Source of the DNA: Bacteroidota bacterium
GTDB lineage: Bacteria; Bacteroidota; Bacteroidia; B-17B0; Aurantibacillaceae
Direction: 5' to 3'
Assembly: GCA_043749245.1 (NCBI GenBank)
Contig: JAYVDU010000565.1
Location: 1-57,010, forward strand
DNA length: 57,010 bases
Numbering within the stretch: position 1 is the stretch's first letter; each line of letters opens with the position of its first letter. Positions 2,555-19,406 of this stretch are shown here, piece after piece. The notes under the pieces are model-generated. The model was not told where the DNA came from and ran no database searches. It saw only the letters and a program-made list of their open reading frames with translations. The translations under genes were made by a program, and so were the position numbers.

Positions 2555-4267
2555 TCATTCTTTAATTAAATACTGACTAGCATGGTCGTAGATTAGCATT
2601 TCACCTGCGCCACCCCATCTGTTTTTATCATGCCCAGTTCTGATAACGCCATGCTCACCATATACCATGACATCGACAATATTTCGCCATTGCTCTTTAC
2701 CTTTGAACTCACCGTTTTTAATACCATGAGACACAATAATAAAAGATTGCTTGTTAAACTGTTCTTTTAATTTTAAAAACTCTGTTGTATCAATATCTAA
2801 GCTGTCTTTAGTATCTATGACTACAAAATCAAAGTCCGCAGGATTTAAGGTGTCGAGTTTACCTACTATACTATAATTATCCCCTGCCGAGATATTTAAT
2901 TGATTTAGTAATTTGGTAAAGGGAGGTGTATCAAACTGCTCGCCTGCAACATATAAAATCTTATAACCTAAAGTCGCCAAATGCTGAGTAAATAATAATG
3001 CAAAAGATGTTTTACCGCTACCACCACTACCATACACAAACAAATGAGTAGGTAAACAAATATCCCCTAACAAGGCTTTCCATTTATCACCCAAAGGAAC
3101 AGCATTATATTTTTTTTGTTTAACGTCATCCACACTCATTACCTGTGGTGTTTCTTCTACGCCATCTAATCCGTTCAAATGCTGTTTTTTATTTTTGGTA
3201 TTTTTTTGACAATCACAATTACAACCCAATGCACCATTTAAACCATTAAGCGTTTGCTGATGAATTTCTAAAGTTTCAACTTCTTTCGCTATTTCTATGA
3301 ATTTATTTAAAGCATTACCGACTTGCATCACATTGGAATAATAAGGGTCTGCTTTTGATATTTTATTAGTTTCAATAGCATCTAAAATTACGCCCAATAA
3401 TCTTTTAGCCTTATCTTTCGTTATATTTTTACCTTGTATGCTTATAAAGCGTTTTAAATACTGAGTAGATAACCTGATTCGGGCAGAGCCTACAATATCA
3501 GAAAATCGTTTAATGGTTGATGCCCCTAGTTCAAAGACTTGTTCATTACCCATCATACCATAAGCCGTTAGTAATTGTTTCTGTACCTGCATCACTTCGT
3601 TAGAATATTTAGATGTCTTACGGATGCGCTTTTCAATAATAGCTCTTTGTAAGGCATTGATAAAATTTAATATTTGAGTTTTGGTTCTGCTTTTTTCATG
3701 CAAGGATAAATAACGTTTTATAAATTTAATTTCGTCATCAATTCGTTCAAATGGCTTGCTATGGTCATAGCTAATCCGTACAGACGCAGACTTAGTTGCC
3801 CTACTTTCTGCTTTAATCTTTTTAGGTTTAGATTCGTTTTTAAGTTCATCGTAAATGGATTTTAATGAAAATGAAAAGTTGGTAGATTGATTTTTGATTT
3901 CATCTATAATTATTTTATGCTGTCGGATATTAATATGGTACTCTCCATTAGCAAGACCCATGTGACTTTTGTCAAGACTGTCGTAACTATCTCCTCTATG
4001 AACATAAGCCCTTATAAAATCTTTCGCATAACCTTTAGCGGTTGTTTCAGTGATTTCTTTTTGTGGTTTATGATTAAGTTGCTCATTTAGCAAAGCCACG
4101 TACTTATCAACCTTTACTTGTATGCCGACGTGTTGGTCGTAAAATTTCCACGTCGAATAGTTTTCGGTAGATTGTTGCACAAACAAAAACCCTTTTTTAA
4201 GATTTTCTGGCAGTTTTGAAAATGGAATGGTTTTTACCTTTTCAAAATAATTTTCTTTGGTTATCAT
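2555..4267 (-). CDS. Protein with C-terminal RecA/DnaB-fold P-loop ATPase domain (replication or packaging NTPase candidate)
   Basis: Walker A VYGSGGSGKTSFALLF and Walker B-like DFDFVVIDTKDS in the last ~170 aa. The N-terminal 400 aa are unrecognised. Carries LNGLNG and LNGLDG motifs at the domain boundary. Confidence 0.6.
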   Translation of the reverse strand: MITKENYFEKVKTIPFSKLPENLKKGFLFVQQSTENYSTWKFYDQHVGIQVKVDKYVALLNEQLNHKPQKEITETTAKGYAKDFIRAYVHRGDSYDSLDKSHMGLANGEYHINIRQHKIIIDEIKNQSTNFSFSLKSIYDELKNESKPKKIKAESRATKSASVRISYDHSKPFERIDDEIKFIKRYLSLHEKSRTKTQILNFINALQRAIIEKRIRKTSKYSNEVMQVQKQLLTAYGMMGNEQVFELGASTIKRFSDIVGSARIRLSTQYLKRFISIQGKNITKDKAKRLLGVILDAIETNKISKADPYYSNVMQVGNALNKFIEIAKEVETLEIHQQTLNGLNGALGCNCDCQKNTKNKKQHLNGLDGVEETPQVMSVDDVKQKKYNAVPLGDKWKALLGDICLPTHLFVYGSGGSGKTSFALLFTQHLATLGYKILYVAGEQFDTPPFTKLLNQLNISAGDNYSIVGKLDTLNPADFDFVVIDTKDSLDIDTTEFLKLKEQFNKQSFIIVSHGIKNGEFKGKEQWRNIVDVMVYGEHGVIRTGHDKNRWGGAGEMLIYDHASQYLIKE

Positions 4268-4279
4268 AATCGTTAGTAT

Positions 4280-4564
4280 TTAAAAATCCAAGTCGTCCGC
4301 TTTACTCATTAATTCTTTGAGTATATCGCTTTCGGTTTGTTGATTGATTTGAGTTTCAAATAGTGTATAAACCTTAACTGAAATAAAAGCATCAGTATGT
4401 TCAACTATTTTTTTATATCTATTTTGTTCGTTTTCTTTTGCATCCTGCCATAGAGCAAAGGTTTTTTCGTATTGACGAATAAGGTCAGCCAATTCGCCTG
4501 GCAATTTGTTGACTTGAACGTTGGCTTTATATAACCAATAGCTATAGCGTGGTGTGTAGCTCAT
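4280..4564 (-). CDS. Hypothetical protein
   Basis: 94-aa ORF, start/stop-coupled (ATGA overlap) to the upstream gene in a co-directional operon. Confidence 0.5.
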   Translation of the reverse strand: MSYTPRYSYWLYKANVQVNKLPGELADLIRQYEKTFALWQDAKENEQNRYKKIVEHTDAFISVKVYTLFETQINQQTESDILKELMSKADDLDF

Positions 4565-17583: not shown

Positions 17584-17621
17584 GTGATAAATTTTTTATA
17601 GTGAATACTTTAGTTATGATT

Positions 17622-19406
17622 TTACATTAATTGAATAACTGATTTGTGATTTTTCGTGAGGGCAGTTTGATAGTTTCGTTTGCGTTTTTTCTTGTGTGTT
17701 TTAACTCCTTCTATGGAGCGGTTTAAATGGTCTTCCTGTATTTCTGCTTGTTCGTCGTTTTTCTGTGTGTGTTTATAGATGAGATATAATACTGTTCCAA
17801 CACCTACGGTAATCGCTACGGGGTTAATCCATTTTTTATTTGCTAAGTAAAAAACTTTGATACCTGTCCCAATGCCTGCCAATCCGTTTGTACTTTCTTC
17901 GCTTTGTTCAGGAAGGTCTGGATTTTCTTCTGGTAGAGTTAGTTCGTTATTATCATCCGTAACGGCAGGCATATTGTCTTCGTTATTTTCCTGAGAAGTA
18001 TCATTGGTAGTATCAAAATTTTCTTCTTGCGGTGCTTCTTGCTGAGTTTCTTGTGAATTTTCTTCTTGTACCTCACTCATTTCTGAACTTCCAGAACCGC
18101 CTCCACTTTCTCCACCGCCTTGTTCTGCGGAATTACCATTGCTCGCTTCAGTAGTTGTACTTTTATTTTTTTTCGGAAATAAATTACCGATAGATTTTAT
18201 GAGCGCTGCTAATGCACCAATGGCGGTAGTTGCAACGGCAATGGCTGCGCCTGTGGCAGGTTCACCTAAGCCATTACCTCCTTCTAAACCTGCAAAACCC
18301 TCGAAGCCCTCCATACCATTTACTAATTCATCGTGGTAAACATCTCCTAATAATTGTGATAAAGGCATGGTATCACTTAATCCATCAACGCTTGCTAATT
18401 CGTGCTTACGGTTACCCCTGCCTGTTAAAATGGCTTTGCGTAAATTAGTAGGATTTCCTCCTGCGGCATAAAAAATATTTTGAGTTTTTTCCAATATTTT
18501 TTTGATACGGTCATATTTTCTCATATCCATTCCTTTTGCTTTGGCTTGTTCTCGTGTCGCATAACCCCATTTAATCGCTTCGGCTACTTTCATGATATTG
18601 AGTTTCATCGAGGCTAAAATGCCTACTCTTAATAGGACAGTAGCGGGATTGACCTTATTAAGTACATTAAAAACTTTACGTGTTTTTTGCATGAACTTTT
18701 GTCGTCTTTCTTTAGCTCTTTGTTTTTGTTCAGGAGTTCTTTTTTTGAAAAGTTTCCCTAATTCCCCAAAGTCTTCATTATTGCTAAACAAGTCTTGGGC
18801 ATCCATGTTGTTGTATTTGGTGGGTGTATCGTCCAAATTATCATTTGTTCCAATACCATCTAAAAATTGTAATTCCATATTGTGGTCTTCTTTATTAGTA
18901 TAAAATTTTTCTTTATTAAATTCATTCCATACACAATCCATGATTATATAACGCCCTTTACCATTAGGAATTAAGGAGTAGATGTGTTGAAAAAAACTAT
19001 TGTAATCATAAGCTGTAATACGATTAATGATTCCTTTCACTCCTAATTCAAGCATACAGGCATTTACAAAATTGGTCATGCAATCGCAATCACCTCTTCC
19101 GTCTGCTATCAATCGTCTTGCAGATTTTACTTGCTCTTTTGTTTTAGCATCTTTTTCATACTTAATATGCTCTTTAACGAAGTACCAAAGTTTTCTGCAA
19201 GCATTGTAAATGGATAATCCCCTTAATTCTCGATTCACAAAATTCTTTACCATCCAACGACTTCGCCTTGCTGCTTCTGGCATAAATTTTACCGTATCAG
19301 ATACACTGGCTCCTTTTTTTATTAAATGGTCTATCCCTGTGGCTTTCGGAAATAAATGCCGATAGGGTGCAAGGCTTTTTAATTTCATGTTACCTGTTGC
19401 CTCCAT
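17622..19406 (-). CDS. Transglutaminase-like (papain-fold) cysteine protease domain protein with acidic linker and C-terminal TM
   Basis: GRGDCDCMTNFVNACMLELG resembles the transglutaminase-core catalytic Cys motif. A long E/Q/N-rich tract follows. C-terminal TM is VAITVGVGTVLYLIY, then a basic tail. Confidence 0.6.
   Translation of the reverse strand: MEATGNMKLKSLAPYRHLFPKATGIDHLIKKGASVSDTVKFMPEAARRSRWMVKNFVNRELRGLSIYNACRKLWYFVKEHIKYEKDAKTKEQVKSARRLIADGRGDCDCMTNFVNACMLELGVKGIINRITAYDYNSFFQHIYSLIPNGKGRYIIMDCVWNEFNKEKFYTNKEDHNMELQFLDGIGTNDNLDDTPTKYNNMDAQDLFSNNEDFGELGKLFKKRTPEQKQRAKERRQKFMQKTRKVFNVLNKVNPATVLLRVGILASMKLNIMKVAEAIKWGYATREQAKAKGMDMRKYDRIKKILEKTQNIFYAAGGNPTNLRKAILTGRGNRKHELASVDGLSDTMPLSQLLGDVYHDELVNGMEGFEGFAGLEGGNGLGEPATGAAIAVATTAIGALAALIKSIGNLFPKKNKSTTTEASNGNSAEQGGGESGGGSGSSEMSEVQEENSQETQQEAPQEENFDTTNDTSQENNEDNMPAVTDDNNELTLPEENPDLPEQSEESTNGLAGIGTGIKVFYLANKKWINPVAITVGVGTVLYLIYKHTQKNDEQAEIQEDHLNRSIEGVKTHKKKRKRNYQTALTKNHKSVIQLM

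Follow-up and report, generated by a model that had tools for sequence, protein, structure and literature searches.

The maturation proteases of several viruses cut at short consensus sites, namely L/I-x-E for gp21 of T4, S/A/G-x-E for gp175 of phiKZ and (M/I/L)XGX-G for the adenovirus protease. Short peptides can also act as docking-type signals, as in encapsulins, where Gly/Leu-rich terminal peptides direct unrelated proteins into the shell; the capsid-targeting sequence of T4 is another precedent. For tailless phages that contain a membrane, we know of no maturation protease that acts at a consensus site. Salisaeta icosahedral phage 1, or SSIP-1, is such a tailless, membrane-containing phage and its capsid is believed to be built from single beta-barrel proteins (PMC6356626, PMC4958249, PMC6260650). 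LapG is a site-specific endoprotease that recognizes a short motif of small residues (PMC10990149, PMC6890996), and its fold is that predicted for a domain described below. Here, a stretch of 57,010 nucleotides from a Bacteroidota bacterium (contig JAYVDU010000565.1 of assembly GCA_043749245.1; the whole stretch is called the window) is compared with these systems. It contains an integrated element of about 21 kb, which is a temperate, probably membrane-containing virus-like element of Bacteroidota with a candidate jelly-roll capsid. An earlier note on this DNA, made from the letters alone, had pointed to an LNGLDG-type peptide shared by at least seven otherwise unrelated proteins of the virus-like module and had suggested maturation cleavage or, alternatively, docking as its role. 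The present analysis establishes that the peptide is a genuine short linear motif marking a defined subset of the proteins of the element. It is very probably functional, with either a common factor that reads it or a physical role that all copies share.

A recurrent tandem motif in the proteins of the element

The motif is most aptly written as triplets in tandem, (hydrophobic-[D/E/N]-Gly)n. It usually appears as two to four units in tandem, such as LNGLDG, LDGLEG and MEGFEG, or as a single Phi-[DEN]-G-Phi, in which Phi is a hydrophobic residue; further tandem examples are LNGLNG, LNGTDG, MNGLDG, AEGVEGFDG and VNGMEGFEG. All eleven peptides quoted in the earlier note are present in the translations, and the copies lie, as it had stated, at termini and domain borders (Table 1). 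Its count of seven carrier proteins holds only with relaxed forms of the motif: the strict expression [LMF]x[GE][LT][DN]G is found in five proteins and the tandem form in six. In the 570-amino-acid (aa) ATPase both copies precede the P-loop (GSGGSGKT, aa 413-420), and the copy in the methyltransferase has E where the other copies have G.

The enrichment that the earlier note had expected is present. The strict expression matches 6 times in the 5,433 aa of the module and once in 10,947 aa of host protein, with a mean of 0.12 in 5,000 within-protein shuffles, none of which (0/5,000) reached 6. G[LFIT][DEN]G has 10 matches in the module and 1 outside. The tandem form, with at least two Phi-[DEN]-G units, has 7 matches in 6 module proteins and 0 in the host protein, against 0.13 on average and at most 3 in 3,000 shuffles. 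The lone host-protein match is in IF-2. The frequency in the module is therefore above that in the rest of the proteins, and, as described below, homologs conserve the motif.

Other origins of such a repeat were considered. The motif codons vary at synonymous positions, which indicates selection on the peptide level; a DNA-level repeat was rejected for this reason and because D, E and N are swapped among orthologs. Paralogy of the carriers was dropped, as all-against-all BLASTP among them found no detectable similarity, and collagen-like, RTX, EF-hand and sortase-type readings were dropped on reasoning, since register or context did not fit. The motif pattern was defined only after the peptides had been seen, which speaks for an artefact of chance or composition; the shuffles, the synonymous codon variation, the recurrence in the same families of diverged lineages and the depletion of the flanks speak against it, and this explanation, like that of a translated DNA-level repeat, is effectively refuted.

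Conservation across loci and lineages

Eighty loci with the 239-aa family were retrieved from GTDB genomes, and the comparisons span 83 related loci. The earlier note had tied its reading to conservation in homologous elements, and this was found: the motif stands at fixed alignment positions in five families, with about 17 site classes (Table 1), and the same families carry it in diverged lineages. In the 201-aa family, site 105 is occupied in 66/84 orthologs; in the 594-aa family, site classes 364 and 367 are occupied in 40/77 and 30/77 orthologs, respectively; and in the 288-aa family the three site classes are kept as G-L-[DNS]-G or Phi-E-G-Phi (77 orthologs). For the methyltransferase and for the 88-aa protein, the motif is traceable in five close loci only, where it is loosely kept (LNGLGE, VDGLGT, LNGTGG). 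The 88-aa site is uninformative alone, because the whole protein is about 85% conserved in its five related loci. Across the 83 loci, the motif is almost absent from the 191-, 250-, 246-, 104-, 155-, 127-, 162- and 100-aa families and from the amidase family.

In the same loci, G[LIVMFT][DEN]G reaches 6.5 times the shuffle expectation in the module and 1.4 times in the flanks, and [NS]G[LIVMF][DEN]G 22 times and 1.8 times. The module holds 164 tandem triplets, the flanks 1. These counts show conservation and not independent events, because the loci are homologous. Three observations go beyond simple inheritance: the copy number varies among capsid-like orthologs (e.g., GLDGIDGLDG), distant capsid-like arms are enriched in the motif, and the motif recurs in distant loci. 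The N-terminal 45 aa of 113 distant capsid-like representatives (clusters at <=50% identity) are otherwise unalignable; they contain 12 G[LIVMFT][DEN]G matches against 2.8 expected (maximum 8 in 300 shuffles) and 56 Phi[NDES]GPhi matches against 10.7 expected. In 32 long metagenome loci of a distant subfamily, 69 matches were observed in the 594-aa family (6.7 expected), 15 in the capsid-like family (2.4), 7 in the 288-aa family (1.9) and 6 in the ATPase (1.0), and zero in five other core families. ATPase homologs of other loci, only about 26% identical, have LSGLDGN, KKGLNGV and EELNGV at their own domain borders.

The same family-specific pattern is present in a distant locus with a different gene arrangement (L087, 6801-9273). 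There, the 162-aa family, which lies at 19409-19897 in the window, is fused to the transglutaminase-like domain, which ends at position 176 of the family hidden Markov model (HMM), and the remainder of the 594-aa family is a separate open reading frame (ORF) from HMM position 177, called ORF B, with the start MINGMPIQFLNGT. ORF B keeps the motif at residues 2-12. At another locus (L025, 8744-8757), a 594-aa ortholog has a single in-frame TAA directly before NLNGLG, where its relative L024 has GAA. Gene fission at the motif was rejected for this ortholog, since one in-frame TAA is the cause; it could be a pseudogene, an assembly error or a case of read-through.

The transglutaminase-fold domain of the 594-aa protein

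The earlier note had recognized a papain-fold or transglutaminase-like domain in the module, and the sequence alignment, the AlphaFold2 (AF2) model and fold comparison all agree with it. In an alignment of 118 sequences, D106, C107, D108, C109, H141, D157, L182 and G184 are invariant, and the invariant set Cys107/His141/Asp157 forms a putative catalytic triad. The AF2 model, built from this alignment, covers residues 1-345. Its block-mean predicted local distance difference test score (pLDDT) exceeds 90 for nearly all of aa 11-170 (85 for 81-90; 81 for 171-180) and falls below 50 at aa 180-223 and 340-345. LQFLDG (179-184) and VDGLSD (340-345) are therefore placed at the border between fold and disorder, the former exactly where the transglutaminase-fold domain ends and disorder begins. 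This post-domain site is retained in every lineage and reads M-x-L-Q-[YF]-L-[ND]-G-Phi or M-[SN]-M-[ND]-G-I-N.

The top Foldseek matches, with probability 1.0, are 3isr, a putative cysteine protease of Cytophaga, and LapG (4fgp, 4fgo, 4u65; E about 1e-3); PNGase, Rad4 and the pseudomurein endoisopeptidases PeiW/PeiP follow with lower scores. A profile search of the domain against PDB sequences returned nothing, and the relation is visible by fold comparison only. Pfam DUF553 and Transglut_core match 10 and 7 of 22 orthologs of the 594-aa family, respectively, and a protein search with the 200-aa N-terminal domain alone found 6 fragments only. The transglutaminase-like protein is a core gene, present in 80/83 loci and in 30/32 distant loci, and neither the core families nor the scanned module proteins yielded a further protease-like protein.

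The capsid-like protein

The 239-aa protein is a candidate jelly-roll capsid-like protein on the strength of its model. The AF2 model has a pLDDT of 66, and aa 1-25, which bear the motif, are below 50, so that the motif is located in disorder in both modelled proteins. The best PDB match of the model is 6oj0_A, a chain of the virion reconstruction of Sulfolobus polyhedral virus 1 (SPV1; E 5e-4, TM 0.38/0.48), and other jelly-roll coat proteins come after this chain among the structure matches. The motif peptide quoted for this protein in the earlier note is correct, and its position is one residue off (it starts at aa 16, and aa 17-27 had been given). In many capsid-like proteins, including those of distant subfamilies, the motif lies within the first 4-10 residues (MSYLNGF, MKGLDGYF).

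Relation to Salisaeta icosahedral phage 1

Among 50,697 phage records, SSIP-1 is the sole match to the element. Three of its proteins, each with a structural annotation, are hit by the family HMMs: gp34, which is transglutaminase-like (HMM E 5e-14; hhalign probability 97%; C107 conserved), gp40, the ATPase (E 5e-15), and gp43, a structural protein of which the methyltransferase domain is a part (E 7e-58). Residue 3 of gp40 aligns to aa 377 of the ATPase in the window, 8 residues past its second motif copy. At E <= 1, the family HMMs for the 239-, 127-, 155- and 104-aa proteins find no counterpart in SSIP-1, and no SSIP-1 homologue of the other core families was detected. The 13,103 aa of SSIP-1 contain 5 G[LIVMFT][DEN]G matches, about the background density, and 3 tandem ones.

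Interpretation of the motif

The most likely of the readings considered, which we propose tentatively, is that the motif is recognized and cleaved by the transglutaminase-fold cysteine protease of the element during virion maturation. The N-terminal domain of the 594-aa protein (Cys107/His141/Asp157), associated with the virion, would recognize the motif and cut at or beside it. The protease would first free itself at LQFLDG directly behind its own fold, and would then trim the arm of the capsid protein and separate domains of the other carriers; the motif may double as an incorporation signal. The carriers comprise the N-terminal arm of the capsid-like protein, the juxtamembrane linkers of two membrane proteins, the coiled-coil protein and the linkers of the ATPase and the methyltransferase, the last two of which have homologues annotated as structural in SSIP-1. 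The placement of the motif at the capsid arm, in juxtamembrane and inter-domain linkers and in the first residues after the protease-like fold fits cleavage, and so do the tandem redundancy, the universal transglutaminase-like gene and the precedent of LapG. The action of the protease on the motif sites, and cleavage itself, are what we infer from these data. Several points weigh against cleavage. Non-protease enzymes have the transglutaminase fold as well, as do cell-wall isopeptidases of the phage type (PeiW/PeiP, PNGase), and the domain might serve as an entry lysin that has nothing to do with the motif. SSIP-1, with a homologous enzyme, shows little or no motif enrichment, and we know of no precedent for a D/E/N preference beside Gly among characterized transglutaminase-fold proteases. 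The capsid-like family and its distant subfamilies carry the motif very close to the N-terminus, and in L087 cleavage would remove a very short peptide, because the motif opens a separate gene. Its retention there, where no domain needs release, favours a recognition or incorporation signal; by analogy with T4, such a signal may also be a cleavage site.

The docking or packaging role named in the earlier note fits the N-terminal motif of L087 at least as well as cleavage does. Here, the peptide would bind a common partner without being cut and recruit its carriers into the particle. The partner might be the lattice of the capsid, a vertex/membrane complex or a scaffold, for which the 288-aa coiled-coil protein is a possibility, and the ATPase, the methyltransferase and the basic protein would be among those recruited. 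Conservation, disorder and the family-specific distribution support this as much as they support cleavage, the extreme N-terminal position in L087 ORF B and in many capsid-like proteins agrees with it, variable tandem copy number suits avidity, and the ATPase and methyltransferase homologues are annotated structural proteins of SSIP-1. Nevertheless, it leaves unexplained both the invariant copy right behind the protease-like fold and the copies in inter-domain linkers deep inside proteins, the capsid-like protein itself bears the motif and no binding partner was found; docking without cleavage is considered rather unlikely. Less probable still is a structural element without a common trans-acting reader, in which acidic residues and Gly form turns that act as hinges or Ca2+-binding loops and have arisen convergently in a shared physical environment, e.g., a membrane surface. 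NG and DG favour tight turns, the composition is Gly-rich and acidic, and linkers adjoin transmembrane helices; moreover, a core protein has annexin-like repeats of the Ca2+/membrane type, and LapG-type enzymes are Ca2+-dependent according to the titles of PDB entries 4fgo and 4fgp. However, hinges rarely hold a register as specific as Phi-[DEN]-G across deep divergence or give strict presence and absence among families, the N-terminus of a separately encoded protein that retains the motif needs no hinge, and the enrichment is far above that of composition-matched shuffles. It is quite improbable that the sites are cut by another protease, from the host or an unrecognized protein of the element, with the transglutaminase-like domain serving as a virion-borne cell-wall peptidase for entry. 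The Foldseek matches to PeiW/PeiP and the annotation of SSIP-1 gp34 as a structural protein would agree with this, but the core families offer no further protease-like candidate and the element already encodes an amidase and a glucosaminidase.

If maturation cleavage by the element's own enzyme is extended to the group as a whole, an undescribed family of Bacteroidota viruses, temperate, membrane-containing and with a jelly-roll capsid, would mature its particles by sequence-specific proteolysis, which is a doubtful possibility at present. After setting itself free, a packaged transglutaminase-fold protease would process the arm of the capsid protein, the membrane proteins and the scaffold-like protein; the packaged ATPase, the methyltransferase and the basic DNA-associated protein would also be processed at tandem Phi-[D/E/N]-Gly sites.

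Extent, gene content and distribution of the element

Variant contigs of 90-97% identity from other sediment and glacier metagenomes align from about 237 to about 21190 and stop aligning at the host flanks, which defines the unit as a mobile element of about 21 kb. No att-type direct repeats were found flanking the element, and the loose-end sequence of one variant contig did not map within the window. In run X1, with the sampled stretch complete, the assembly graph forms branches at the element's left border, with short contigs at 153-266 and one contig that departs from the window sequence at 182. This branching fits a population that is mixed at the attachment site. The element directly adjoins a cysteine desulfurase gene and dnd (DNA phosphorothioation) genes (21616-29188), including DndB and a DndE-ATPase fusion.

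The minus-strand genes at 2555-20257 form a single block beside the tyrosine integrase. The C-terminal third of the 570-aa protein is a RecA-like P-loop ATPase, and the module also encodes a MoxR-type AAA+ protein of 439 aa and its DUF7192 partner of 318 aa, a 646-aa N6-adenine methyltransferase, a glucosaminidase and an amidase_2; the 594-aa protein has a weak transglutaminase-core match. The remaining thirteen module proteins had no significant Pfam match. In a PHROGs scan of twenty module proteins, which left out the two peptidoglycan hydrolases, the ten structural-side ones had no match at all. The conserved core is the block 9095-20257, with the 191-, 250-, 276-, 246-, 288-, 104-, 155-, 127-, 239-, 201-, 594-, 162- and 100-aa families and the amidase. 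This structural block is kept between loci and the replication/integration side is exchangeable. In the window, the exchangeable side comprises the tyrosine integrase, the MoxR-type ATPase with its DUF7192 partner, and the methyltransferase, the MoxR-type ATPase being present in only 5 related loci. Where 2555-8789 of the window differs, L002 (3459-5797) has a Mu-type transposase (rve, Mu-transpos_C) and IstB, and L003 has an HTH_3 and Peptidase_M78 (ImmA-like) gene on this side.

Some of the proteins have further features. The core family of the 246-aa membrane protein (12758-13498) contains annexin-like repeats, with a Pfam Annexin match above the curated cut-off in one ortholog (E 2.8e-9); such a domain is unusual for a bacterial virus-like element. 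The 88-aa protein (8800-9066), which has a very basic composition and about 85% conservation across five loci, is a candidate DNA-condensing core protein. Imperfect direct DNA repeats at 7009-7061, 8119-8186 and 18010-18062 encode Glu/Asp-rich low-complexity tracts, which fall in the methyltransferase and the 594-aa protein.

At 90% identity, homologs of the 239-aa protein form 1,391 clusters, and its family occurs in at least 265 GTDB species genomes, almost all of Bacteroidota. A tblastn search with this protein against the 50,697 phage records gave no match. In IMG/VR, a single-sequence scan for the family found nothing, an alignment scan found only 2 contigs, and three pattern scans together placed it on only three contigs. 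The element family may thus be largely missed by virus catalogues. The elements occur in sediment, glacier and activated-sludge samples, and Chitinophagaceae bacterium IBVUCB1 (locus L081) is a carrier that can be cultivated. Some genomes hold two diverged copies (L006/L035 in OZ245863.1; L038/L046 in JAIUNM010000001.1), in one case about 44 kb apart on the same contig.

Table 1. Features of the element and motif sites, with positions in the window; rows for families give alignment positions under Remarks.
Feature	Window position	Strand	Remarks
Integrated virus-like element	237-21190 (approximate)	-	90-97% identical metagenome variants match only within ~237/256 to ~21173/21190
Tyrosine integrase, one end of element	496-1854	+	Pfam matches
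LNGLNG (aa 340-345) and LNGLDG (aa 364-369), 570-aa ATPase	3161-3250	-	Linker ahead of P-loop domain
MoxR-type AAA+ ATPase (AAA_5) and DUF7192 protein	4561-6836		Variable part of element
LNELDG (aa 627-632), 646-aa N6-adenine methyltransferase	6894-6911	-	5 orthologs loosely keep LNGLGE or VDGLGT
LNGTDG (aa 50-55), 88-aa basic protein	8902-8919	-	
LGDLEG (aa 211-216), 276-aa membrane protein	12097-12114	-	Weaker, not listed in the earlier note; orthologs: L-S-G-[ILF]-[DE]
MNGLDG (aa 176-181) and AGLDG (aa 194-198), 288-aa coiled-coil protein	14000-14068	-	
MSLDG (aa 96-100), 288-aa coiled-coil protein	14294-14308	-	Third copy
239-aa candidate major capsid protein	15953-16672	-	N-terminal helical arm and beta-sandwich
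FGLDGLEG (aa 18-25), 239-aa capsid-like protein	16598-16621	-	N-terminal arm; 86% of 84 orthologs
Extra L/M-E-G unit (aa 5-8), 239-aa capsid-like protein	16649-16660	-	
AEGVEGFDG (aa 100-108), 201-aa Gly-rich membrane protein	17260-17286	-	Conserved KERLK next
VNGMEGFEGFAGLEGGNGLG (aa 362-381), 594-aa protein	18264-18323	-	Immediately ahead of transmembrane helix
VDGLSD (aa 340-345), 594-aa protein	18372-18389	-	Site class at reference position 339/340; model disordered there
LQFLDG (aa 179-184), 594-aa protein	18855-18872	-	Right behind protease-like domain
Transglutaminase-fold cysteine-protease-like domain (aa 1-178), 594-aa protein	18873-19406	-	
GRGDCDC stretch in transglutaminase-fold domain	19080-19100	-	
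Small regulator-like ORFs, other end of element	20311-20970		
239-aa family			Reference positions 19, 22; 86% of orthologs with motif
201-aa family			Reference positions 94, 97, 105, 145, 187, 196; 99% of orthologs with motif (at least one)
594-aa family			Reference positions 184, 339, 364, 367, 564; 65% of orthologs with motif
288-aa family			Reference positions 97, 178, 195; 48% of orthologs with motif
276-aa family			Reference position 213; 20% of orthologs with motif

Significance and comparison with known systems

The literature searched contained no description of the motif or of the virus family, and no link between transglutaminase-like proteins and membrane-containing phage virions was found. 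Both the motif and the family are therefore regarded as new, the motif as a shared processing or targeting signal of virion proteins in a new virus group. Such a signal would help to show how the particle is assembled and which proteins are packaged, and the motif predicts virion-associated proteins in a very common, unannotated provirus family. If cleavage is true, it would be, as far as we know, the first proteolytic maturation of this kind among bacterial viruses without tails, and would correspond in function to the maturation of adenovirus or African swine fever virus on a different protease fold.

SSIP-1 has the transglutaminase-like, ATPase and methyltransferase-domain proteins in common with the element, and its host belongs to the same broad bacterial group; it differs in a genome twice as large, in having no detected homologue of the capsid-like protein, and in its little or no motif enrichment. 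LapG and the BTLCP family share the predicted transglutaminase fold with the 594-aa protein and, as a putative catalytic triad there, the Cys-His-Asp set. LapG, however, is a regulator of the periplasm and cleaves adhesins at a di-alanine site (TAAG-type), whereas the motif here is Phi-[DEN]-G and does not match the LapG-type substrate site ([T/A/P]-A-A-G); the domain here is fused to membrane-anchored regions within a structural block of a provirus, and its sequence similarity to LapG is undetectable. Encapsulins differ in that they have an HK97-fold shell and terminal peptides, while the element has a beta-sandwich shell candidate, many internal copies, and a shell protein that itself bears the motif.

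The earlier note had compared the motif with adenovirus-type sites, and this part is not supported. The consensus (M/I/L)XGX-G or (M/I/L)XGG-X is not fitted, as LNGLDG, LDGLEG and MEGFEG put D, E or L where Gly is required; the lone fit, LEGG-N at aa 374-378 of the 594-aa protein, is at chance level. The enzyme is likewise not of the adenain type: no adenain/Ulp1-like (clan CE) protease was found in the scanned module proteins, in which the sole protease-like domain is the transglutaminase-like one. The element further differs from the consensus-protease systems in its transglutaminase-like (papain-clan) fold, in place of a herpesvirus/HK97-type serine protease or an adenain fold, in its jelly-roll capsid-like protein, in place of HK97, and in a motif unlike all of theirs at which cleavage is only proposed. 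The likeness to these systems lies in the arrangement. In the candidate virion proteins of the element, the same consensus recurs in exposed segments; in T4, phiKZ and adenovirus, one short consensus is likewise found in several unrelated virion proteins, at propeptides and linkers. In such systems the enzyme is a component of the virion, as is predicted here, the acidic residue before a small one resembles the preference of the T4 and phiKZ proteases for Glu at P1, and in T4 an N-terminal targeting peptide and a cleavage site coincide.

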